From: a virus
Lineage: Duplodnaviria > Caudoviricetes
Length of the DNA stretch: 53,627 bases
IMG/VR virus record: IMGVR_UViG_3300012984_000020
Coordinates: 1 to 53,627 of that record
Reading direction: 5' to 3' (one strand)
Part shown: positions 3,547 through 53,627 of the stretch, piece after piece
Layout of the letters: each line of letters opens with the position of its first letter
Numbering within the stretch: position 1 is the stretch's first letter
Translations under genes and position numbers: made by a program
Notes under the pieces: model-generated
What the model saw: only the letters and a program-made list of their open reading frames with translations
What the model was told of the DNA's origin: nothing
The model's database searches: none

Positions 3547-3758
3547 AGGATCAGCCACCGCGCAACGGTGCAGAATTACACAACGCGCTGAAGGAGGAAA
3601 TCCAGATGCGCGCAGATGCTTTGGTCCGCGGTTCGCCGAAGGACTATGCGGAGTATCAAAAACTCGTCGGGGTGATCTCGGGTCTAAGCCTCGCCGAGCA
3701 AATGCTGAAAGACCTGCTGGAAAGAGACAACGATGACGACGGTTATAGCCCCACCTGA
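3543..3758 (+). CDS. Small head-module protein
   Basis: ATGA overlap with the portal stop; 71-aa helical protein ('DYAEYQKLVGVISGL'). Confidence 0.7.
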   Translation: MKDQPPRNGAELHNALKEEIQMRADALVRGSPKDYAEYQKLVGVISGLSLAEQMLKDLLERDNDDDGYSPT

Positions 3759-4164
3759 AGGACTGATTCTCCCGCCCGGGATTCAACGCATCAACGAGCC
3801 CGACGCCGACGCCACCGACGAGCAGAAGGCCAGTGCGCTGCCGGTGCCCACCGGCTTCCGCATCCTGTGCATCGTGCCCGCCGCCAAGGACGTGCACGAC
3901 GACTCGGTGATCCTGAAGGCTAAGCAGACGATGGAGGACGAGGAGAGCGGCACCACGGTGCTGTTCGTGCTCGCCGTCGGTCCTGACGCCTACAAAGACC
4001 CGGCGCGCTTCCCCAGCGGGCCGTGGTGCAAGGCCGGCGACTTCATCTTGGTGCGGCGCTACGCCGGCACCAAGTTCAAGATTTTCGGCAAACGCTTCAG
4101 GGTCATCAACGATGACCAAGTCGAGTGTGTCGTGTCCGATCCCCGTGGCGTTGAAGGAGCATAA
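3733..4164 (+). CDS. groES: GroES/Cpn10-like co-chaperonin
   Basis: 'PTGFRILC...VLAVGPDAY...CKAGDFILVRRYAGTKF...RVINDDQVECVV' follows the Cpn10 pattern. Confidence 0.85.
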   Translation: MTTVIAPPEGLILPPGIQRINEPDADATDEQKASALPVPTGFRILCIVPAAKDVHDDSVILKAKQTMEDEESGTTVLFVLAVGPDAYKDPARFPSGPWCKAGDFILVRRYAGTKFKIFGKRFRVINDDQVECVVSDPRGVEGA

Positions 4165-7213: not shown

Positions 7214-7249
7214 TGTTACTATGTAGGCTGAACCACTTGGAGCCTACGT
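7214..7249 (+). promoter_or_regulatory. Extended -10 promoter plus SD/start-sequestering hairpin of the endonuclease gene
   Basis: TGtTACTAT at 7214-7222. The stem ATGTAGGCT (7221-7229)/AGCCTACGT (7241-7249) overlaps the GGAG SD and the GTG start. Confidence 0.55.
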
Positions 7250-8096
7250 GCACGTCATCTATCAAATCACCTGCACCGCGAACGGCAAGTTTTACATCGG
7301 CAGCACGGTCAACAAGGCCCAGCGTTGGAAGAAGCATCGCGGCGATCTCCGCAAGGGCATCCACAAGAACCGCAACATGCAGGCGTCGTGGAGCAAGTAC
7401 GGCGAAGATGCGTTCGTCTTCGTTGTGGTCGAGGAGGTGGCCGACCCGGTGCAGCTGATGGCAGCCGAACAGCGCCGGCTGGACGTATGCGTCGGCGATC
7501 CGCAGTGTTTCAACCACAACAAGTTCGCTGACGCACCGATGCGGGGGCTTTCTGGGCCAGACACGCCGAATTACGGGCGGCACTGGCCGCCCGAGGTGCG
7601 CGCCAAGATCAGCGCCAGTCTCAGCGGTGAGAAGCATCCGAACTGGGGTAAAGAGGCATCGCCCGAGGTGCGCGCAGCGCTCGCCAAAGCCAACGAGACA
7701 AACCCCTGGCGCGGCGCGGAGCACACCCCCGAGGCCAAGGCGAAGATCGGCGAAGCTGGCCGTGGCCGCCCTCAGTCGCTGCAGACACGCGCCAAGCGCA
7801 GCGCCACGCTGCAGGGGCATGAGGTCAGCACGCTGACGCGGTTGAAGATCAGCCAGTCGCTGCAGGGCGAGGGCAACTTCTGGTACGGCAAGAAGCGCGG
7901 CGCCGAGTTCAGCGCCAAGGTGTCCCGCCCCATCGTCGCCACCAACCCCGCCGGCTTGGAGTTCACCTATCCGAGCATCACGCGGCTGCGCGAGGTGCTG
8001 GACATGACGCCGACGACGATCAACCGGGCTTTGAAGGCGGGCGAACCCTTGACACGCGGGCCGCGATCGGGCTGGAGCTTCCGGTACGCGACGTAG
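7248..8096 (+). CDS. Free-standing GIY-YIG homing endonuclease with NUMOD3 repeats
   Basis: N-terminal 'VIYQITCTANGKFYIGS...RWKKH'. NUMOD3-like units 'RAKISASLSGEKHPNWGK' and 'RLKISQSLQGEGNFWYGKK'; C-terminal HTH-like segment. Confidence 0.9.
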   Translation: MHVIYQITCTANGKFYIGSTVNKAQRWKKHRGDLRKGIHKNRNMQASWSKYGEDAFVFVVVEEVADPVQLMAAEQRRLDVCVGDPQCFNHNKFADAPMRGLSGPDTPNYGRHWPPEVRAKISASLSGEKHPNWGKEASPEVRAALAKANETNPWRGAEHTPEAKAKIGEAGRGRPQSLQTRAKRSATLQGHEVSTLTRLKISQSLQGEGNFWYGKKRGAEFSAKVSRPIVATNPAGLEFTYPSITRLREVLDMTPTTINRALKAGEPLTRGPRSGWSFRYAT

Positions 8097-37217: not shown

Positions 37218-37234
37218 TTGTGTAAGATTATACA
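37218..37234 (-). promoter_or_regulatory. Promoter/operator, copy 1 of the 17-bp repeat TGTATAATCTTACACAA
   Basis: Contains a perfect TATAAT; identical to 50406-50422. Confidence 0.6.
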
Positions 37235-37270
37235 TTAGAAATCGGCGTGAGGATCAAGAGCGTACTACCT

Positions 37271-38943: not shown

Positions 38944-39147
38944 TCAGTCCTTGAACGCGTCGATGCGGTCGCCGAGGATGCAGCTGTAGTGCAGCATATG
39001 GATGGCCTGATGGTGCAGGCGCACCTGCTCAGCGCTATCGGTAGCGGCGAAGACTGGCGAGCCGATGAACGCGTTCAGCGCTTCACGCTTGACATCGAGA
39101 TCGGCCTTCTCTTCGACGACACGCTGCTGGTAGGGCATGAGGGTCAT
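38944..39147 (-). CDS. crAss001_48-like small helical protein
   Basis: 'YQQRVVEEKADL..K..AL..FI......EQ..L..Q...M..Y..IL..RI..F' pattern. Confidence 0.7.
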   Translation of the reverse strand: MTLMPYQQRVVEEKADLDVKREALNAFIGSPVFAATDSAEQVRLHHQAIHMLHYSCILGDRIDAFKD

Positions 39148-39740
39148 ACGAGCTTCCGACGAGTTGCTGCCAGCGCGAACAGGCCCAGGCCAGCAAGCGC
39201 AAGAGATGCGGGCTCGGGCACTTGCGTGACGATGAACGGGTCAGGGCTGCCGGGCGGGAGAAACGTCATGTTCTGCGACAGCAGCGAGCCTTGCTTGTCA
39301 CCCGCGTCGTTTAGGAAGCGCAGCTTCAGGTGCGGCGTGTGCAGCGCGTCCAGCGCCAGCGAGCCGCCGGTCAGGTCGATCGTGAATGTCATGTCATTGG
39401 TCAACGCGATCGGAGGCGCTGCGTCGAAGCAGACGCCACCGCTGTCGCCACCGCTGCAGCCATTGGCATTCAGTTCGTTGGGCGAGTACACCCAGTTGCC
39501 CGGGGTCAGCGTACCGCCGGTCGGATCGAAGCCCAGGTCTTTGAAGCCCAGGTTGTCCAGCTTCGTGGCCGGACCCCAGTCGCCCGTGGCGTCCAGCGCG
39601 CCCTTGATGCGCAGCGTGAAGCTGTTGCTGTCGGTCTGGTTGAAACCAAACAGCACGCCTTGTTCGGCGTAGATGAACGTGGGCGCGGCCTGTGCGCTGA
39701 ACGCCAGCGCCGCGAGTACGGTGAGAAACACTTTCTTCAT
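39144..39740 (-). CDS. PEP-CTERM sorting-domain protein 1
   Basis: Signal peptide 'MKKVFLTVLAALAFSAQA'; C-terminal 'VPEPASLALAGLGLFALAATRRKLV' (VPEP, TM helix, basic cluster). Confidence 0.93.
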   Translation of the reverse strand: MKKVFLTVLAALAFSAQAAPTFIYAEQGVLFGFNQTDSNSFTLRIKGALDATGDWGPATKLDNLGFKDLGFDPTGGTLTPGNWVYSPNELNANGCSGGDSGGVCFDAAPPIALTNDMTFTIDLTGGSLALDALHTPHLKLRFLNDAGDKQGSLLSQNMTFLPPGSPDPFIVTQVPEPASLALAGLGLFALAATRRKLV

Positions 39741-43058: not shown

Positions 43059-43720
43059 TACCTGATCCCCTGGAATTCGCACGTCGTCACTTCGCAGTAC
43101 TTCTTGCACAACCCGTTCTGCTTGGGCGGCCAATGGTTGCTGGCGATCGACGCCTCGATGGCGCCAGAGCGCTCGCGCCAGCGCCACCACAACTGCTCGG
43201 CTTGGTGGCGCTTCACCTTGTGTTTCGCCACTGTGCCCTTGAGCACGAATAGTAAGCCGCCGGACACGCTCTGCACAGTCGGGAAATGCTGGAAGATCAT
43301 CAGCGCCATGAGCAGTAGCTGATCGGTGTCTGGGTACTTGTCGCCACCAGACTTGTAGTCGTAGCAGCGCGCCGTGGTGCGGTCGGGCGAGAGGATGATG
43401 AGGTCGGCCACGCCGCGCACCCAGCAGTCCTTGGCGAAGAAGTCACAGGGCGTGAGGTCTTCCTTCAGGCCCATCTTCCACTCGCACAGCTTGTCGCCCG
43501 GCATGGCCTTGAGCGAGTCCATGATCGGCTGCATGAACTTGAAGTCCTTGCCGAGCGGGGTGTTGTAGAGGATGAAGTGCTCGGCCTGCTTGTGCAGTTC
43601 CGTGCCGTACAGGTTCGAGGCGTTGTCCTGCTTGGGGAAGTGCTTGAGTATCTTGACCTCGTGGAACTTCCGGCGGCACGTCTCGTAGTCCTTGATGGTG
43701 GAATATGACCAAGTCAGCAT
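43058..43720 (-). CDS. PD-(D/E)xK exonuclease (RecB/Cas4-like)
   Basis: 'WSYS...C', 'GTELH', 'RGVADL', 'DYKSG', 'QL', terminal 'LCKKYCEVTTC'. Confidence 0.85.
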   Translation of the reverse strand: MLTWSYSTIKDYETCRRKFHEVKILKHFPKQDNASNLYGTELHKQAEHFILYNTPLGKDFKFMQPIMDSLKAMPGDKLCEWKMGLKEDLTPCDFFAKDCWVRGVADLIILSPDRTTARCYDYKSGGDKYPDTDQLLLMALMIFQHFPTVQSVSGGLLFVLKGTVAKHKVKRHQAEQLWWRWRERSGAIEASIASNHWPPKQNGLCKKYCEVTTCEFQGIR

Positions 43721-43806
43721 GTCTTCTCCTTCTCTCGCTTCAGACAGACGTGGCACTTCTTGCCGCCGTTGCGCCAGCAGTAGCAGCGCATCTGGTATGC
43801 CTTCAT
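43714..43806 (-). CDS. Cys-rich micro-ORF (30 aa)
   Basis: GGAGG SD; MKAYQMRCYCWRNGGKKCHVCLKREKEKTC; overlaps the nuclease start. Confidence 0.45.
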   Translation of the reverse strand: MKAYQMRCYCWRNGGKKCHVCLKREKEKTC

Positions 43807-43817
43807 GATGCCTCCAT

Positions 43818-43845
43818 AAAAAAGCCCCCAGCCTACGCTGGGGGC
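43818..43845 (-). terminator. Rho-independent terminator of PEP-CTERM gene 2
   Basis: Minus strand GCCCCCAGC-GTAG-GCTGGGGGC-TTTTTT. Confidence 0.85.
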
Positions 43846-43864
43846 CATGCCATTCAGACGCGAT

Positions 43865-44476
43865 TTAAGCGGCCTTGCGGCGACGAACGACGCCGGCAGC
43901 CATCAGGCCCAGTCCGACCAGCGCCAACGACGCAGGCTCGGGCACATTGGACTCGTTCACCTGCAGGTTGCCGGTGTAGCTGGCCGGCTGGTTGCCAGCG
44001 AGGCCAGAGATCGTGCCGGTGATGCTGAAGGCGTACCGGCCGGCGGCCAGATCGGTGAAGTCGATCACCGTGGCGTAGGCCGGGTTGGTGAACCCGTCCG
44101 CAATCATGGCGCCGGGGGTCAGCGCCGAGCACAGACCGCCTACCGTCGGCCCGTTCGGCGCGCAATTGCTGCCCGTCACGCTGAACAGCTGCACATCGAA
44201 GTTCGAGATGTTTCCGATCGGCAGGAAGATCGCGTTGACGGACGCGGCGCCGGCTGGGTTGATGTCGAAGACCCACCAATTCGTGAAGGCACCATTGAAG
44301 CCGGTCGTAGCGTTTCCGAAGGTGCTGTTGTCGTCGGTGAGCGGGCTGTGGGTGCCGAGGTAGGTGCCCGGCTGGCCCTGCAGGTACGCGCAGTTGTTGC
44401 AGACCACACCGGCCGAGGCCGCGGCGGACATCGCCAGCATGGCAAGCGCGCCGAGGAAAGATTTGAGCTTGAGCAT
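43865..44476 (-). CDS. PEP-CTERM sorting-domain protein 2 (FxDxF-like)
   Basis: Signal peptide 'MLKLKSFLGALAMLAMSAAASA'; 'FTNWWVF', 'LAAGRYAFSITG', 'SYTGNL'; C-terminal 'VPEPASLALVGLGLMAAGVVRRRKAA'; AGGAG SD. Confidence 0.93.
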   Translation of the reverse strand: MLKLKSFLGALAMLAMSAAASAGVVCNNCAYLQGQPGTYLGTHSPLTDDNSTFGNATTGFNGAFTNWWVFDINPAGAASVNAIFLPIGNISNFDVQLFSVTGSNCAPNGPTVGGLCSALTPGAMIADGFTNPAYATVIDFTDLAAGRYAFSITGTISGLAGNQPASYTGNLQVNESNVPEPASLALVGLGLMAAGVVRRRKAA

Positions 44477-44528
44477 GTGAACTCCTAGGAGGTTGACGGG
44501 ACGGGGAAAACCCCCGCTGACTATACAA

Positions 44529-44544
44529 AGCAAGCATCTTGCCG
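44529..44544 (-). promoter_or_regulatory. Sigma54 (-24/-12) promoter
   Basis: Minus strand CGGCAAGATGCTTGCT versus consensus TGGCACGNNNNTTGCW; exact GG-N10-GC spacing. Confidence 0.75.
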
Positions 44545-44552
44545 CCGTTATG

Positions 44553-44565
44553 GATCAATGACTTG
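44553..44565 (+). promoter_or_regulatory. IHF-like binding site
   Basis: GATCAATGACTTG versus WATCAANNNNTTR (one mismatch); lies between the enhancer and the sigma54 site. Confidence 0.55.
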
Positions 44566-44575
44566 CGGAGGGTGG

Positions 44576-44592
44576 TGTAAAGAAATCCGACA
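44576..44592. promoter_or_regulatory. Enhancer-binding-protein site TGT-N11-ACA (PEP-CTERM-box-like)
   Basis: TGT-AAAGAAATCCG-ACA, about 40 bp upstream of the -24 element. Confidence 0.6.
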
Positions 44593-45030
44593 TCAAAACG
44601 GCAGCGGGTCCAGCATCAGCGTGTCGCACCCGTCGCCGCAGTCGATGGCGAAGTGGCACGCAATCTCGACGGCAGTGACCGCGCTCTTGCCCAGGTACAT
44701 CGCTGCCTCGGCGAAGTCGCGCCCGCTGCCCCACGCGGCGCATTTGTTCTCGTAGATCATCGGGTAGGGCGCTGCGTCGTAGACGTGGATGCCCTTCTCG
44801 TTGATGACGATCAGCGTGGCCTTGTCCTCGCGCGCCTTGGCCGGGAACTTCTCCGGGTCAGCGCCGGCCTTATGCCACTCACGTATCTCGATGCCCACAT
44901 CCCACACGCCAGTGATGCCGTACAGCTGGTTGTTGTGCTTCTCGATCTTCGTGCAGGTGTGGCGCAAGCCGGCGCTGGTGACGCGCTTGTCGGCCGCCAG
45001 CACGCTGCCGTCCCAACAGATTACAGACAT
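44593..45030 (-). CDS. HslV/proteasome-beta-like Ntn hydrolase
   Basis: '(M)SVICWDGSVLAADKRVT...KI...G..G...AAWGSGRDFA.AAM.LG.SA..AV..A'. Confidence 0.7.
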   Translation of the reverse strand: MSVICWDGSVLAADKRVTSAGLRHTCTKIEKHNNQLYGITGVWDVGIEIREWHKAGADPEKFPAKAREDKATLIVINEKGIHVYDAAPYPMIYENKCAAWGSGRDFAEAAMYLGKSAVTAVEIACHFAIDCGDGCDTLMLDPLPF

Positions 45031-45032
45031 GA

Positions 45033-45218
45033 TTACTCCCCCACCATGAGCGAGTGCGCAACGATCTCGCACTTGGTGACGAAGTACTCGGCGCCGTCGT
45101 CGCTGTCCATCCACTCCTTGAGCACTTCGCCCATGTGGTCGGACGTGCTGGTGATCTCGGTGGTGGACTCGATCCCGTCGCCGGGGTCAACCATGTAGGT
45201 GATCTTGAAAGTCGTCAT
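45033..45218 (-). CDS. Small acidic hypothetical protein
   Basis: ATGA coupling; 61 aa, Asp/Glu-rich. Confidence 0.5.
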   Translation of the reverse strand: MTTFKITYMVDPGDGIESTTEITSTSDHMGEVLKEWMDSDDGAEYFVTKCEIVAHSLMVGE

Positions 45219-45543: not shown

Positions 45544-47550
45544 CTATTGCTTGGCCTCGCCGTAGCGGGCGTGCGCGCCACCATCAGCAGCCAGCGGGAT
45601 GCCGGGCATGTAGGTGGGCTCCTTTGTCATCTGCCGCAGCACCCACGGCAGGGCCTTGTCCTTGTCCTGCACGCGGGCCAGTGCGTTCAGTTCGTCGTGC
45701 ACCGTCATCACGATCGGCAGGCGCTCGCTCACGCGGATCATGCCGTCGGCCATCACCAGCCGCGCCAGTCCTTGCGTGACGTTGTTGCAGATCACGCCGG
45801 GGTGAATCTTGACGCGCGCCTTGCCCTTCATGTAGGTGTACTCGACGCGGCCGCGCTCGTCGAACGCCTTCTCCAGCCCGGGGTACAGAATCTGCATCCC
45901 GTTGGGCAGCGTGATGGCGCCCTTGCTGAAGGTCAGGCACTTGTAGGTCTCCACCTCGCCGCGGTGCAGGCAGTTCTCCAGCATGCCGCCCAGCACCTTC
46001 CAGAACTTCGTCACCGGCTCAGCGGCCGCGCGGTAGCGCTCGATGATCTCCTTCGCCACGATGCAGTGGATCAGCAGTTCATCCATCGTGCAGCTGTGCG
46101 CGATGGTGTGCACCTGCTTCATGTGCCAGTCGTTGTTCAGGAACCGCTGCGCAGTCGCTGCGCTGATGCCCATGAGCTTGGCGTCGGCCTTGGTGTACAT
46201 CCGCGGCGGGGCGCCGAGGAAGCCTGTCAGAAGCTGCTGGGCGAACGAGCGCCACCCCAGCATGTACCCAGCCCCCAGCAGGGCCGACTTTGCGCTCTGA
46301 CGTAGCAGCGGGTGCGTCTCCTTGGTCATGCCCGGCACGCCGAACATGATGGCACCGAACTCGGCGTAGGCATCCCGGCCCGAGCGGAAGATGTCCAGCA
46401 GGTCCATGTAGTCGGCCAGCCATGCCAGCACGCGCGGCTCGATCTGCGACAAGTCACCCACCACGCAGACGTAGCCCTCGGGGGCCATGATCGCCTTGCG
46501 CAGCCGGCTGCCGCGCTTCATGTTCTGCATGTTGATGTTGCTGCCCTTCGCCGCCTGCCACCGGCCAGGGCCTGCGCCCCAGTAGTTCAGCGGGATGGGC
46601 AGCGCGCCACGCTGCGCGATCTCCAGCAGCCGGTGCGCCCGCGTGCGGCCCTGTGTGGACTTCACGTTGAGGCGCGCGTTGCACAGCAGGGCCACGTCCT
46701 CGTTGTCGCCGTTGAGCAGCTGCTGGAACATCGCGTCGGTCTTGGCGAACGCGAAGATCATCTTGCCCTCGGCCTTGCCCTTGGCCGAGGGCGATGGCTT
46801 CATCGGCGGGTCGATGTCGAACTGGCGCAGGATGGTGGCAAAGATGTCGTTGCTGGCAAGCTCGGACTCGGTGCGGTTGCAGCGAGCCAGCGCCAGCGCC
46901 AGCGCCCCCTCCTCGTCCGCGATCGCCTCGCCGAGCAGCTTGCTGTCCAGCACCAGCTGGGGCTTGGTGTACATCTTGATCGTCATGTCGATCAGCTTCA
47001 GTTCCGACGGCGGGAACTTCGGCAGCATGCGCTTGAACAACTCGATCGCCAGCCATGTGTCGTGCCGGCAGTAGCGCGCCAGCGCCTCCTCGATGGCGAA
47101 CGGGAGGTCTTCGTCGAGGATGTTCTCCGTTGACTCCAGGCCGTCCATCTTCGGCGGCAGACCGTAGCGCTCGGCCAGGGTCTTCAGGCTGTTGCCGGCC
47201 TCGACCCCGTGCAGTGCCCGGCCCATGCTCAGCGTGTCGAACACGAACGCGGGGTGCACGTCGTGGCGCCAGCACAGTGCGGCCACATCGAACGCCGCGT
47301 TCTGCGCGATCAGCGCTGTCCTGCTCCAGTCGATACTGTCGAAGAACGCCTGCAGGCCATTGCGCCTCACCCACACCTCATGATGCTCGCCGGTCACGGG
47401 ATCGAGCACCGACCACGACAGGCCCCACAACTTGAAGCGCGGGTCGCGCAGGTACTCCTCCATCGTCTGACAGGAGAAGCCCAGGCCGATGGCCCGGCCC
47501 CAGGTTGACTCGATGTCGAGTCCGATGATTCGATCAAATGGCTTCGGCAT
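45544..47550 (-). CDS. polA: DNA polymerase family A (3'-5' exonuclease plus polymerase)
   Basis: Exo motifs 'LDIES', 'QNAAFD', 'YCRHD'; motif A 'DLSQIEPR', motif B 'RQSAKSALLGAGY', motif C 'VHDEL'. Confidence 0.93.
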   Translation of the reverse strand: MPKPFDRIIGLDIESTWGRAIGLGFSCQTMEEYLRDPRFKLWGLSWSVLDPVTGEHHEVWVRRNGLQAFFDSIDWSRTALIAQNAAFDVAALCWRHDVHPAFVFDTLSMGRALHGVEAGNSLKTLAERYGLPPKMDGLESTENILDEDLPFAIEEALARYCRHDTWLAIELFKRMLPKFPPSELKLIDMTIKMYTKPQLVLDSKLLGEAIADEEGALALALARCNRTESELASNDIFATILRQFDIDPPMKPSPSAKGKAEGKMIFAFAKTDAMFQQLLNGDNEDVALLCNARLNVKSTQGRTRAHRLLEIAQRGALPIPLNYWGAGPGRWQAAKGSNINMQNMKRGSRLRKAIMAPEGYVCVVGDLSQIEPRVLAWLADYMDLLDIFRSGRDAYAEFGAIMFGVPGMTKETHPLLRQSAKSALLGAGYMLGWRSFAQQLLTGFLGAPPRMYTKADAKLMGISAATAQRFLNNDWHMKQVHTIAHSCTMDELLIHCIVAKEIIERYRAAAEPVTKFWKVLGGMLENCLHRGEVETYKCLTFSKGAITLPNGMQILYPGLEKAFDERGRVEYTYMKGKARVKIHPGVICNNVTQGLARLVMADGMIRVSERLPIVMTVHDELNALARVQDKDKALPWVLRQMTKEPTYMPGIPLAADGGAHARYGEAKQ

Positions 47551-47962
47551 TTGCTTGCTCCCTGATGTCCTCAATGAGTCGGCCGAGGTGGTTGGTGCCA
47601 TTGCCCTTGCACACGCCCCAGAACGTATCGCCCCAGGTGTTGCCCTCGATGATGCGTGCATCGCCGGTGTCGAGCAGCTTCTGGCGCATCTCAGGGATGG
47701 CGAACTTCTGCAGGAGAAGTCGGCGCATGACCTCCAGCTTGATCGTGTCCCAGTCGTCGCGCTTCGTGACGAACCCGCCCAGGCGCTTTGCCGCACCGGG
47801 CGAAGCGGTGTCGCGGATGCCTTTGCGCTCGCCCGGGTCTAGCGTCTTCGCCGCTTGGTAGGCGTGCTCGACGGTGGGGTATGTCTCGCCGTCCATCAGC
47901 ACAGGCGCGGGCCAGAAGTTCGACAGCCAGCGGTGTGGCCCCAGGAATTCCTTGATGTCCAT
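47534..47962 (-). CDS. NADAR (YbiA-like) family protein
   Basis: 'WLSNFWPAP...YPTVEHAYQAAK...AKRLG...DWD...M...KF...LLDTG...IIEGNTWGDTFWGV...G.NHLG.L'. Confidence 0.9.
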   Translation of the reverse strand: MDIKEFLGPHRWLSNFWPAPVLMDGETYPTVEHAYQAAKTLDPGERKGIRDTASPGAAKRLGGFVTKRDDWDTIKLEVMRRLLLQKFAIPEMRQKLLDTGDARIIEGNTWGDTFWGVCKGNGTNHLGRLIEDIREQANAEAI

Positions 47963-47963
47963 C

Positions 47964-48254
47964 TCAATGTGTCCTCGTTGGGTCTGTGTTGGAAGCTGCG
48001 GCAGCATAGGCAGCGCGCGCAGCCATGAAATTACACATCATCTCCTCGACCGTCTCCACGCCGCAGTTGATGGCGTGCATCAGCACGGGCTCGATCTCGG
48101 CGTCGTCGGCGCTCGGCAGCGTGTGGATGAAAAAACCCTGCAGCCTCTCGTTGGCGATGACGTGCACCAAGTGCATGAAGATGTGCTGCAGCACCTCGCG
48201 CTTCTCTTCGGGCAGCCCCTGGATCACGCGGGTCATGTGGTCTTCGGCGTTCAT
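47964..48254 (-). CDS. Hypothetical protein
   Basis: ATGA coupling; 96 aa. Confidence 0.55.
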   Translation of the reverse strand: MNAEDHMTRVIQGLPEEKREVLQHIFMHLVHVIANERLQGFFIHTLPSADDAEIEPVLMHAINCGVETVEEMMCNFMAARAAYAAAASNTDPTRTH

Positions 48255-49442: not shown

Positions 49443-50393
49443 TCACAGGTCGAATTGGTTGCGCAGTTCATTGACTGCCTTGCGCACGTCCTCGCGCTTG
49501 GCGTAGTCATCGCGCAGGGTCTGCGCCGTCGTGCCGCCCAGCGCCTTCTCCAGCGCGGCCGCGGCCTTGTCGATGGTGTGGCCCTGCAGCGCCGGCAGCG
49601 ACTTCACCAGCGAGCACAGGTCGTAGGCGTTGGTGACGAGCGTGTCATGGAAGCGCTTCTGCTTGAAGTCGCCGGTCTTCAGGTCGGTCTCCGACACCAG
49701 TCTGTCCGCCATGCGCTCCAGATGGTCGCTGACGCGCTTGGTGATGTCCGCCAGCATGGCGGCCTCGCGGCTGGAGTTGGTGCGCGTCAGGCTGGCCTGC
49801 AGTTCGGCCAGCGCGTCGTTGCCCACGTCCACGCGGAAGTCGCCGGTGCTGGGCACGGGCTCGATGTCGAGCGACACATTGAACTTGCTGGCGATCTCGC
49901 TGGCCGACGGGAAGTCGTCGCGCTTGAACATCGCGCCCAGCGCCATCGCCTGCGCTGTGATGAGGCCCGGGTAGATGGCGATGAACGCCTCGACCTGGGC
50001 ATTGAACTCGGCCATCAGCATGCGGATGTTCTTGTCGAACTCCATCAGCTTGAGCGTGGGCAGCAGGCGCTGGCCGGCATCCGTCCAGGGGAACGTGTTG
50101 TCGTAGACGTAGTTGCGCATGCGCGTGGCGATCTTCGCTATGTCTTCCAGTTCCGGCCGACCGGCCAGCAGGTTCTTGTTCACGCGCGCGGCGCCCTTGG
50201 ACTTGGCGCCCTTCGACGCCTCGACCTCGTCGGACACGCCTCTGTCCAGCTTGCGGGCGGTCCACTGGGACACGCCGAGGGTGACGAGGACGGAGCAGGC
50301 GTTCAGGTTCAGAGTGTGGTTCATGGTGTTTCCTTTGGGGGTGGTGGGGGTTGCGGTTGCGAGGACTTCAGAGAGACGTTGTTCGAGGGACAT
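49443..50393 (-). CDS. Helical phage protein (DUF3150-like); alternative in-frame start at 50324
   Basis: 'SQWTARKLD', 'RVNKNLL', 'TFPWTDAGQRLLP', 'LGAMFKRDDFP', 'GDFRVD'. Confidence 0.75.
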   Translation of the reverse strand: MSLEQRLSEVLATATPTTPKGNTMNHTLNLNACSVLVTLGVSQWTARKLDRGVSDEVEASKGAKSKGAARVNKNLLAGRPELEDIAKIATRMRNYVYDNTFPWTDAGQRLLPTLKLMEFDKNIRMLMAEFNAQVEAFIAIYPGLITAQAMALGAMFKRDDFPSASEIASKFNVSLDIEPVPSTGDFRVDVGNDALAELQASLTRTNSSREAAMLADITKRVSDHLERMADRLVSETDLKTGDFKQKRFHDTLVTNAYDLCSLVKSLPALQGHTIDKAAAALEKALGGTTAQTLRDDYAKREDVRKAVNELRNQFDL

Positions 50394-50405: not shown

Positions 50406-50422
50406 TTGTGTAAGATTATACA
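50406..50422 (-). promoter_or_regulatory. Promoter/operator, copy 2 of the 17-bp repeat TGTATAATCTTACACAA
   Basis: Identical to 37218-37234; the TAA of TATAAT is also the upstream stop codon. Confidence 0.6.
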
Positions 50423-51021
50423 ACAGGTTTCTTGAGGTCGCTGACCTCGTCGATGATGAGGACATCCGCCCGCTTGCCGGTCAGGGGCTTGCCGGGGATG
50501 GCCGACCCGCTGCCCTGGAAGCTGGACACGAGCGTGGCGCCAGCGGCATTCTGTCGCGTCTGCGTGGCGTTGGCGCCGGCCACGCGCCGCATGTTCAGCA
50601 TGTGCATGAACGCCTCGGCCGTGCGCCGCGCCTCGTCGATCACGACCGGGTCGGTCAGCACCGTGCCCTTCTCGACCGGCATGTGCGCGACGAACACCAG
50701 CCGGAACGACGCGGCCTGTCCGACCACTTGGTTGTAGCCCAGCTGCAGGATGTAGTGCGCGCCACCGAACAGGCTGCCGACGACGCGTGCCTCGTCCAGC
50801 GCTGGCCCTGTCCAGTTGCCCTCCAGCACCTTGGACGTGGCGACACGCACGGGGACAAGCGCCTCCAGTTTCGTGATGCTGTTCATCTGCAGCGCGCGCT
50901 GCTCGGGCGCTGGGGGTATCTGTTTCTCTCGATTGATTTTCATGATCTCTTGCTCAAATTTGCGGGTTAATGCCTTATCGACGCGTACAGCTGCGGCGAC
51001 GATGTCTTCGTCGTTAATCAC
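50416..51021 (-). CDS. Hypothetical protein
   Basis: GTG start after AAGGAG; GTGA overlap with the upstream stop. Confidence 0.55.
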   Translation of the reverse strand: MINDEDIVAAAVRVDKALTRKFEQEIMKINREKQIPPAPEQRALQMNSITKLEALVPVRVATSKVLEGNWTGPALDEARVVGSLFGGAHYILQLGYNQVVGQAASFRLVFVAHMPVEKGTVLTDPVVIDEARRTAEAFMHMLNMRRVAGANATQTRQNAAGATLVSSFQGSGSAIPGKPLTGKRADVLIIDEVSDLKKPVV

Positions 51022-52202: not shown

Positions 52203-52450
52203 ACGTTTCTTCCCATGTATTCGAGGTTGAACCATTCGCCGTTATCGGTCAGCACCGAGTAGCCCGTGTTGTTGCCAAAGAGATAGCGCTTCTTCTCAGG
52301 CGCCCAGATGAACTTGCTGTGCAGCGGGCCTTCGCCCAGCCGCAGCAGCATGTTGTTCGCCTGCTTGCAAATCTCCTCGGCATGCGCGTCGTCGCGCGGC
52401 TTCTCCAGTTCGATCCAGACACGGTTTGGTGGGTGTTTCTTGCTTGTCAT
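52199..52450 (-). CDS. Hypothetical protein
   Basis: AAGGAG SD; ATGA coupling downstream. Confidence 0.6.
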   Translation of the reverse strand: MTSKKHPPNRVWIELEKPRDDAHAEEICKQANNMLLRLGEGPLHSKFIWAPEKKRYLFGNNTGYSVLTDNGEWFNLEYMGRNV

Positions 52451-52460
52451 GTCGTTCTCC

Positions 52461-53588
52461 TTAACGAGCGTTGAGGACGCGCAGGCTCTGGGTGAGCGTC
52501 TGCGTGAAGGTAGCCGAGCGTGCGAACACGCCCATCTTCTTGGAGTTGTTGGACACGTTCTTGGTGAACAGCAGCCGCGCCTCACCGGGCATGCGGTTCA
52601 TGTACTGCGAGACCGCCTCCGCTGCGCCCGAGTCCTGCGTCTTGGTGATGAGTTGGAAGGCCAGCATCACGCGAGCGCCGGCGTTGTCGGGGATGAACGT
52701 GCCCATCGGGTCGTGGCAGATCGCACCGAAGGAGGGGAGAGACCTACCAAATCTCACGTAGGCCATGAGCAAGGCCGTGAACGCCCGGCCGATGGTGCCG
52801 TTGATGGCCGCCGTCAGCGTGTGCTCGTCCAGGCTGCCCCCTCGGTTGAGGATGTCGCTGGTGGCGTGCAGCGAGCGCGGCGTGGCCCACTTGTCCTGCA
52901 CGGCGCGGGGGTTGAAGATGTACGGGTTGGTCCGCGCCAAGTCCTGCCCGGCCTTGGCCGCGCCAGCTTCGTAGTCCGTGAAGGACTCGAACACCTGCGG
53001 GTACTCGTTCACACAAGCGATGACGGCCGGATGCAGGCCGCGCGGGATGGCGAACTGATCGATCCATTCCTGCGCCGTCGGCTTGCGCAGCGTCACGTCG
53101 ATCAGACGGTCGCGCAGGTGGGCCTGCATGCTGTCGCCCAGGCCCTCGGCGCCCAGGTTCGTGCAGGCAAACACGATGCTGCCCACCGGCATGTGGTAGT
53201 CGCCGATGCGGTGCTCGTACAGGATGGGCGCCAGCGCGTCCTTGATGGACTGCTTGGCCTTCGCTACTTCATCCAGGCAGATGACGATCGGCTTGCTGCC
53301 GTCGATGCCCTTGCGGTTGCCGTTGTGCACACCGAAGCGCTCGTTGGGAAGCTCGCGCGACACGCCGGCCTCACGGTCGAGGTCGGGCACCCAGATGCTG
53401 CCATCGCTCAGCTGGGTGCAGTCCACCGGGTTCACGACGTGGTGGTCTTTGAAGGCGTCGTCCTCGGCCAGCGCGTACAGCATCGAGGTCTTGCCGATGC
53501 CGCTCTCGCCTTGGACGAGGATCGTTCTGTCCATGCCGACGGCTTTGATGAGGTCGAGGGTCTGGACGGAGTTGAGGGTCAGTTTCAT
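52461..53588 (-). CDS. MoxR/dynein-related AAA+ ATPase
   Basis: Walker A 'GESGIGKT', Walker B 'ICLDE', sensor 'ACTN', Arg finger 'LRDR', 'TPRS'. Confidence 0.88.
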   Translation of the reverse strand: MKLTLNSVQTLDLIKAVGMDRTILVQGESGIGKTSMLYALAEDDAFKDHHVVNPVDCTQLSDGSIWVPDLDREAGVSRELPNERFGVHNGNRKGIDGSKPIVICLDEVAKAKQSIKDALAPILYEHRIGDYHMPVGSIVFACTNLGAEGLGDSMQAHLRDRLIDVTLRKPTAQEWIDQFAIPRGLHPAVIACVNEYPQVFESFTDYEAGAAKAGQDLARTNPYIFNPRAVQDKWATPRSLHATSDILNRGGSLDEHTLTAAINGTIGRAFTALLMAYVRFGRSLPSFGAICHDPMGTFIPDNAGARVMLAFQLITKTQDSGAAEAVSQYMNRMPGEARLLFTKNVSNNSKKMGVFARSATFTQTLTQSLRVLNAR

Positions 53589-53601
53589 GGTCTTCTTTCA
53601 G

Positions 53602-53622
53602 AAAAAAGCCGGCAGTGCCGGC
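53602..53622 (-). terminator. Rho-independent terminator upstream of the AAA+ gene
   Basis: Minus strand GCCGGC-ACT-GCCGGC-TTTTTT. Confidence 0.65.
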
Positions 53623-53627
53623 GAGGG

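Follow-up and report, generated by a model that had tools for sequence, protein, structure and literature searches.

A phage PEP-CTERM gene behind a shortened enhancer, IHF and sigma54 cassette of bacterial type, with probable input from host RpoN and PrsR

The virus record IMGVR_UViG_3300012984_000020 of IMG/VR (53,627 bp, analysed over its whole length and called the window here) carries on its minus strand a gene for a 203-residue PEP-CTERM protein, preceded by control elements that resemble those of proteobacterial PEP-CTERM genes. We read this 775-bp unit as an accessory ('moron-like') transcription unit in the replication module of a lytic-type phage with terminal repeats, equipped with a shortened and complete PEP-CTERM cassette through which host RpoN and PrsR contribute to its expression, and we give this reading a probability of about 0.65. 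The bacterial cassette is known; what appears to be new, judging from sequence comparison, is its shortened version in front of a phage PEP-CTERM gene. The first-pass annotation of this DNA, made from the letters alone, knew of no such phage system, and in the literature searched (PEP-CTERM, exosortase, sigma54 or moron, each with phage) we likewise met with neither a PEP-CTERM gene nor a PrsR cassette described from a phage. The features of the unit, from its 3' to its 5' end, are as follows.

43815-43846, minus strand: intrinsic terminator closing the unit; 10-pair stem (43846-43823), then a T run
43865-44476, minus strand: PEP-CTERM protein gene, 203 aa, with PF07589 and TIGR02595 matches
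44482-44486, minus strand: ribosome-binding site AGGAG, 5 nt before the ATG, read from the sequence
44501-44517, minus strand: 5' leader hairpin GCGGGGGUUUUCCCCGU; the fold of lowest energy has a six-pair stem, and the transcript is predicted to begin here
44517-44518, minus strand: predicted transcription start, placed from sigma54 geometry about 12 nt downstream of the -12 GC
44529-44544, minus strand: sigma54-type -24/-12 promoter CGGCAAGATGCTTGCT; GG at 44543-44542, GC at 44531-44530, in the correct GG-N10-GC register
44553-44565, plus strand: IHF-like site GATCAATGACTTG, one mismatch from WATCAANNNNTTR, in reverse orientation relative to the gene
44576-44592, minus strand: PEP-CTERM box TGTCGGATTTCTTTACA, predicted PrsR enhancer (Haft motif 1); 17 nt, ending in TTTACA, non-coding

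Results

The available portions of PMC1569441 (Haft et al. 2006) describe the control region of proteobacterial PEP-CTERM genes as a 17-nt motif 1 ending in TTTACA, followed after a spacer of 32-92 nt (mean 62.8) by a sigma54 motif 2, which lies 23-221 nt before the start codon and ends on average 71 nt before it. According to the accessible part of PMC9850573, PepA of Aquincola tertiaricarbonis is RpoN-dependent, with a mapped start site, and the PEP-CTERM/exosortase pathway is required for floc formation in activated-sludge bacteria. As a reference we used the PepA-family PEP-CTERM genes of 301 Burkholderiales genomes, since FxDxF and other PEP-CTERM genes of the Telluria-like family nearly all lack the cassette (present in 1 of 44 parsed upstream regions, L056). 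Among 28 parsed PepA-family upstream regions, 21 hold the box TGTCGGnnTTTTTTACA followed by TGGCAYG-N4-TTGCT. Box and promoter matrices were built de novo from 20 of these 21 cassettes, one being left out with its promoter 243 nt from the start codon. In place of a sigma54 cassette, the bacterial FxDxF genes L043, L045, L046 and L049 share a distinct conserved leader of about 90 nt (…GCTTTGCTAGCATGAAG…CCCCGATTCTTGATAACCAAG…), which may be another regulatory element.

The enhancer box is specific and is a near-perfect bacterial PEP-CTERM box. It scores 29.0 bits, against a bacterial leave-one-out median of 27.3 and minimum of 13.7, and ranks first in the window; none of 200 shuffles reached this score (shuffle maximum 22.0), and none of 200 matched the composite of box and promoter. 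The bacterial pepA genes L133 and L142 have boxes that deviate from it at a single base. It adjoins the stop codon of the upstream gene, its first base being the next one after that codon, and the entire intergenic region measures 116 nt. The second-best box of the window (50409-50425, 15.5 bits) is not a cassette: a start codon follows 17 nt downstream, and the site overlaps TTGTATAAT.

Between box and promoter lies the IHF-like site (IHF, integration host factor). Shuffling of the 31-nt spacer yields such a site with P 0.004, and in the relatives L013 and L017, whose sites have no mismatch at all, the corresponding values are 0.001 and 0.0005. In all three phages the offset from this site to the promoter 16-mer is exactly 8 nt, in the same orientation. 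Among the bacterial cassettes, 10 of the 14 with a box-promoter distance of 78-81 bp have an IHF-type site in reverse orientation at an offset of 18-19 nt, 8 with at most one mismatch.

The distances between the elements fall into a regular series. Measured from start to start, box and promoter are 48 bp apart in the window, 58 bp in L013 and L017 and 80 bp in L038, a further family member; bacterial distances are 78-81 (14 cassettes), 91-92 (2), 101 (2) and 112-115 bp (3), and those of other viral cassettes 46, 58-60, 67-68 and 78-81 bp. These distance classes are steps of about one helical turn. Because the classes lie about one turn apart and the IHF offset is 8 nt rather than 18-19 nt, the phage version reads, on sequence comparison, as the bacterial cassette minus whole turns on either side of the IHF site. 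The distance from promoter to start codon, 52 nt, lies within the range of 34-89 nt in the bacterial reference set. The first-pass annotation had placed the three elements in the correct order; orientation and helical phase are correct as well, and the arrangement matches the cassette in the available text of PMC1569441.

Short forms of the cassette are not confined to phages. A first composite pattern (GTCG-N7-TTTAC-N{25,55}-TGG-N8-TTGC), whose spacer range missed the usual bacterial spacing, gave 11 matches in 201 Burkholderiales genomes against 10 for the reversed control, and its sole good-looking match, L121, proved to be coding DNA with no PEP-CTERM gene downstream. A compact pattern with a 22-46-nt spacer gave 13 matches in the 301 bacterial genomes against 1 in the control. 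PEP-CTERM genes follow two of the 13 (spacer 41), and other small genes follow four; bacterial cassettes with spacers of 30 and 41-42 nt do exist.

Four of these bacterial loci, L283-L286 (genomes G304, G263, G074 and G128), have good boxes, 30- or 42-nt spacers and sigma54 promoters before genes of 111-128 aa that do not encode PEP-CTERM proteins. Because of them, the bacterial regulon may be wider than PEP-CTERM proteins. The same loci lend something to the idea that the phage cassette is functional and is read by another host sigma54 activator, or by PrsR under conditions unrelated to flocs, as does the fact that the signal of PrsK is given as still not known in the accessible part of PMC1569441. 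We nevertheless regard this idea as improbable: the phage box corresponds to that before PepA-family genes, and in the same source the motif and PrsR/PrsK/PrsT are reported to have exactly the same phylogenetic profile.

The phages L013 and L017 are clearly related to that of the window (polymerase 76%, SNF2 79%, PD-(D/E)XK nuclease 64-85% and VWA protein 78% identical). When the window, L013 and L017 are aligned with two short cassettes from bacteria (alignment A2), the invariant columns are GTCG, TTTAC, the IHF core, GGC and TTGC, with few elsewhere. The 203-residue protein itself is about 50% identical in L013 and about 81-83% in L017. The unit has also moved: its neighbours in the window are the proteasome-like and PD-(D/E)XK genes; in L013 it follows the homologue of orf90, and in L017 the VWA gene. 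The cassette is found in 4 of 24 distinct family upstream regions, namely those of the window, L013, L017 and L038. In the protein tree, the window, L017 and L038 fall into a supported clade together with L007 and L019, while L013 branches deeper. Since one clade holds cassette members, L007 with a different repeated motif and L019 with a sigma70 promoter, promoters have evidently been exchanged more than once in this family, as far as these sequences tell. The motif of the low-GC relative L003/L007 is a near-identical stretch of about 25 nt (CCGTGCCAATGCGGAACATTGG-like) that occurs before its PEP-CTERM gene and again before the next gene, a VWA gene (2950-2975 and 3700-3725); it may be a phage-specific promoter or RNA element.

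Each genome has one box. A box of high affinity on the replicating phage genome could in principle act as a decoy that titrates PrsR off host promoters and damps the matrix programme, with expression of the gene secondary. The combination of a very high box score and a weak promoter, more marked still in L017 (box 29.9 bits, promoter 6.2 bits), is all that speaks for it. We consider a decoy very improbable, in that a decoy would have no need of the IHF site, GGC and TTGC, which are kept at a fixed phase, and a single box per genome is also against it.

The first-pass annotation had described the gene as encoding a signal peptide and a VPEP, transmembrane and RRR tail, and this is borne out. 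The protein consists of signal-like residues 1-22, a beta-sandwich domain and a PEP-CTERM sorting tail of the form VPEP-hydrophobic-RRRK (residues 178-203, encoded at 43868-43945), and it exceeds the cut-offs of both PF07589 (30.9 against 20.7 bits) and TIGR02595 (25.6 against 16 bits). Its N-terminus reads MLKLKSFLGALAMLAMSAAASA, then G, and has the features of a signal peptide in both sequence and structural model. The AlphaFold model (predicted local distance difference test, pLDDT, 86.3) shows a helix at residues 3-15, the beta-sandwich and a C-terminal helix. A Foldseek search returned generic beta-sandwich binding modules only, with template-modelling (TM) scores of 0.27-0.43 on the query; pre-peptidase and collagen-binding domains, the claudin-binding domain of an enterotoxin and the phiX174 spike were among them, and none was accepted as indicating a specific function at such low TM-scores. 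Judging from the model, a binding or adhesion role in a surface layer is plausible.

The protein family has 46 homologues, all on metagenomic or viral contigs. No homologue was found among 50,697 records of cultured phages, and in GTDB species representatives the matches were confined to the C-terminal tail or a short segment (residues 61-85). On a profile of the family (A1), its viral and metagenomic members score 200-345 bits, and the best match in the 301 Burkholderiales genomes scores only 48.8 bits. Because the homologues are confined to metagenomic and viral contigs and the best match in Burkholderiales is weak, the protein appears to belong to a phage-associated clade. The best-scoring named family is NF038126 (FxDxF family PEP-CTERM), with 48.4 bits against a cut-off of 50 over profile positions 22-164 of 165; by sequence, the clade would be a distant relative of the FxDxF-family proteins and not a member.

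The terminator, also predicted earlier, consists of a 10-pair stem and a T run that fold with -25.5 kcal/mol (z -2.7), an equally good fold arising in 2 of 200 shuffles; no equivalent was found 3' of the L013 and L017 genes. The fold energy of the leader hairpin is ordinary (z -0.9). A near-identical hairpin, GCGGGGG-YTTT-CCCCGT, stands at the same predicted 5'-end position in L013 (3958-3974) as in the window; in L013 a T-rich tail follows it, and it was flagged there as terminator-like.

The genome around the unit is that of a tailed phage. The record is linear and estimated to be 84% complete. Its plus-strand half encodes a truncated large terminase, portal, major head protein, tail fibre and structural proteins as well as an LPD38-domain protein of 2615 aa. 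The minus-strand half is the replication module, with primase/helicase, SNF2 helicase, VWA protein, PD-(D/E)XK nuclease, a proteasome-like protein, family A DNA polymerase and HNH endonucleases. The closest cultured phages are Pseudomonas KPP25-like and Rhizobium phages, with a polymerase identity of only about 28%. Two related genomes are complete, L013 with 64.7 kb and direct terminal repeats and L009 with 67.9 kb. The window and three relatives of 98-100% completeness gave no match to a tyrosine integrase or serine recombinase/resolvase; in view of this and of the terminal repeats of the complete relative, the group looks virulent and of lytic type. Exosortase families (including PF09721, the EpsH family) gave no match in the window or in three related virus records, and the phage must therefore rely on the sorting machinery of the host. 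Sigma54_activat had no match above its cut-off in the window or in the three relatives of 98-100% completeness. A sub-threshold match at 53406-53546 was rejected as a phage-encoded activator, the open reading frame (ORF) being that of a generic AAA ATPase only.

Similar cassettes occur in other viruses. Scanning IMG/VR twice with a box-spacer-promoter pattern gave 41 and 73 stretches, from which 113 matches were parsed; 26 of these (22 distinct) are followed by an ORF with a signal peptide and a PEP-CTERM tail. The encoded proteins have only the sorting tail in common with the 203-residue protein. In the flanks sampled, the genes are those of phages (primase and integrase; RecT and tail fibre; tape measure and sheath; terminase; tail fibre). 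These contigs are not relatives of the window phage, as tblastx against the window gave only short matches of low identity.

Discussion

To go with the elements observed, their specificity, geometry, conservation and phage context and the lack of matches to a phage exosortase, enhancer-binding protein or integrase, we propose the following mechanism. Phosphorylated host PrsR would bind the PEP-CTERM box at 44576-44592, IHF would bend the DNA at 44553-44565, and PrsR would then activate host sigma54 RNA polymerase at 44529-44544, with transcription running from near 44517 to the terminator at 43846-43815. The 203-residue product would be exported by the Sec pathway, held by its C-terminal helix and passed to the host exosortase, and a phage beta-sandwich binding module would enter the exopolysaccharide or floc surface layer of the host only while the PEP-CTERM programme of the host is on. 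Judged by its control region, the phage gene is probably tied to the aggregation state of the host. The roles suggested for it in the first-pass annotation, such as receptor masking, are speculation.

Several findings weigh against this reading. The sigma54 site scores 9.6 bits, under all 20 bacterial promoters (minimum 11.4); it ranks sixth in the window, 199 of 200 shuffles reach its score, and the window, with 4 matches to the sigma54 consensus at up to two mismatches against 13.6 expected, has no excess of such sites. The spacer of 31 nt is one below the minimum given in the available text of PMC1569441. Some circularity is also present, as the training sites were chosen by a regular expression that the window site fits too; by a base-odds estimate, about 0.04 chance matches to this expression are expected in the bacterial regions searched, and it agrees with the independent description in the accessible part of PMC1569441. 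No terminator separates the upstream phage gene from the unit, and read-through is therefore possible. A -10-like element, TTGTATAGT (TATAGT; 44520-44528, minus strand), overlaps the -12 element. Finally, 20 of the 24 distinct family upstream regions lack the cassette, their best box score being at most 7.7 bits, and one family member, L019 (1-93), has a consensus sigma70 promoter (TTGACA, 17 nt, TACAAT) in its place.

The weak sigma54 site, the possible read-through, the -10-like element and the loci without a cassette would all suit a cassette that is a relic or redundant, the gene being expressed mainly on phage early or middle transcripts, or from the sigma70 -10-like element, and the cassette adding little. 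So would the behaviour of the sequence class to which TTGTATAGT belongs: the window has 5 TTGTATAAT-like 9-mers where 0.5 are expected, an enrichment seen in 0 of 100 shuffles. Three of them lie on the minus strand of the replication module (50415-50423, 44520-44528 and 37227-37235), and 17 nt separate one of these from the ATG at 50392. Such 9-mers are candidates for the -10 element of promoters that the phage itself carries and the host reads. We still hold a relic to be unlikely. The box is on a par with the bacterial median, and the functional positions are invariant in L013 and L017 despite a protein identity falling to about 50% and the relocation of the unit; the TATAGT element, on the other hand, is kept in neither, and a scan for consensus sigma70 promoters found none in 43500-45000. 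Two wastewater runs labelled RNA-Seq contained only 151-183-nt contig pieces of relatives, uninformative on starts or strand.

We therefore retain the reading of a cassette with host RpoN/PrsR input, in a narrower form than first stated. The sigma54 site has the right place and register, matches 10 of 12 consensus positions and keeps GG/GC and TTGCT; weak as it is, it is convincing only in its context and does not exceed chance on its own. Control by host RpoN/PrsR 'rather than the phage cascade', as the first-pass annotation put it, keeps its first half, host input being likely, and loses its claim to exclusivity in view of the read-through, the TATAGT element and the weak sigma54 site. Conservation of the elements in related phages, too, is found in part: all three are kept in L013 and L017, and most family loci are without them.

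Phage morons, as known from lambdoid phages and HK97, are accessory genes that sit between conserved phage genes and bring a promoter and a terminator of their own. The present unit resembles them in its predicted own promoter, its terminator, its place between conserved genes and its variable position among relatives, and differs from them in its virulent-looking carrier, its enhancer-dependent promoter and a terminator seen in the window and not in L013 or L017. With the proteobacterial PEP-CTERM cassette, as far as it is described in the available parts of PMC1569441 and, for pepA, PMC9850573, it shares a box of 17 nt that ends in TTTACA, a spacer holding an IHF-type site, the GG/GC bases of the promoter, a promoter-to-start-codon distance (52 nt) within the bacterial range and the organisation as a single-gene unit for a protein with signal peptide and PEP-CTERM tail. 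In contrast to the bacterial form, it lies in a phage genome, its spacer is 31 rather than about 62 nt, the IHF site is one helical turn nearer to the promoter, which is itself weaker, the intergenic region measures 116 nt where bacteria typically have more than 200 nt, and neither PrsK/PrsR nor an exosortase is encoded in the same genome. A host-sigma54-type promoter in a phage has a parallel in the sigma54-like promoter of Pseudomonas phage YuA (PMC10914365); the accessible text on YuA mentions the promoter only, and no cognate box, IHF site, two-component regulon or link to an exosortase substrate.

If the cassette works as we read it, a gene of a lytic-type phage would be under the control of a host two-component system and an enhancer-dependent sigma factor, and such tight, signal-gated control is rarely reported for phage genes. 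Phage infection would then be linked to the PEP-CTERM/exosortase pathway of floc formation, the one treated in the available part of PMC9850573. The compact 48- and 58-bp versions amount to a natural spacing experiment on how short an enhancer-IHF-sigma54 arrangement can be with its helical phase kept, and the box is a sequence tag that could help to assign uncultured phages to PrsK/PrsR-positive hosts.

With at least 22 distinct IMG/VR cassettes besides this family, we tentatively suggest, while thinking it somewhat more doubtful than the reading of the unit itself, that a general and so far undescribed class exists: phages of floc- or biofilm-forming Proteobacteria, some of them apparently virulent, may carry shortened, helically phased PrsR-box/(IHF)/sigma54 cassettes that sense host aggregation and switch on exosortase substrates only in matrix-building cells. 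If this is true, phages would write proteins of their own into the exopolysaccharide coat of the host by means of such cassettes.

Other features of the window and its relatives

A second PEP-CTERM gene lies at 39144-39740 on the minus strand of the window. It encodes 198 aa (PF07589 31.8 bits; TIGR02595 17.0 bits against the cut-off of 16), is separated by 10 nt from the small ORF that precedes it and is accompanied by neither a box nor a sigma54 site; over 197 aa its product shares 30% identity with that of a cassette-driven PEP-CTERM ORF in an unrelated viral contig, L237. In L029, a 39.5-kb contig, such genes occur in tandem: another PEP-CTERM gene (3700-3930) ends just upstream of the family member.

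Among the other genes of the window are those for a proteasome-subunit-like protein (44593-45033, minus strand; PF00227, 24.6 bits), a NADAR-domain protein (47534-48007, minus strand) and, beside the head genes, a homing endonuclease of GIY-YIG type (7248-8096, plus strand). Two long ORFs overlap on opposite strands, 52461-53588 (minus) and 52308-53627 (plus); the former, with weak, sub-threshold similarity to AAA ATPases, is probably the real gene of the pair.

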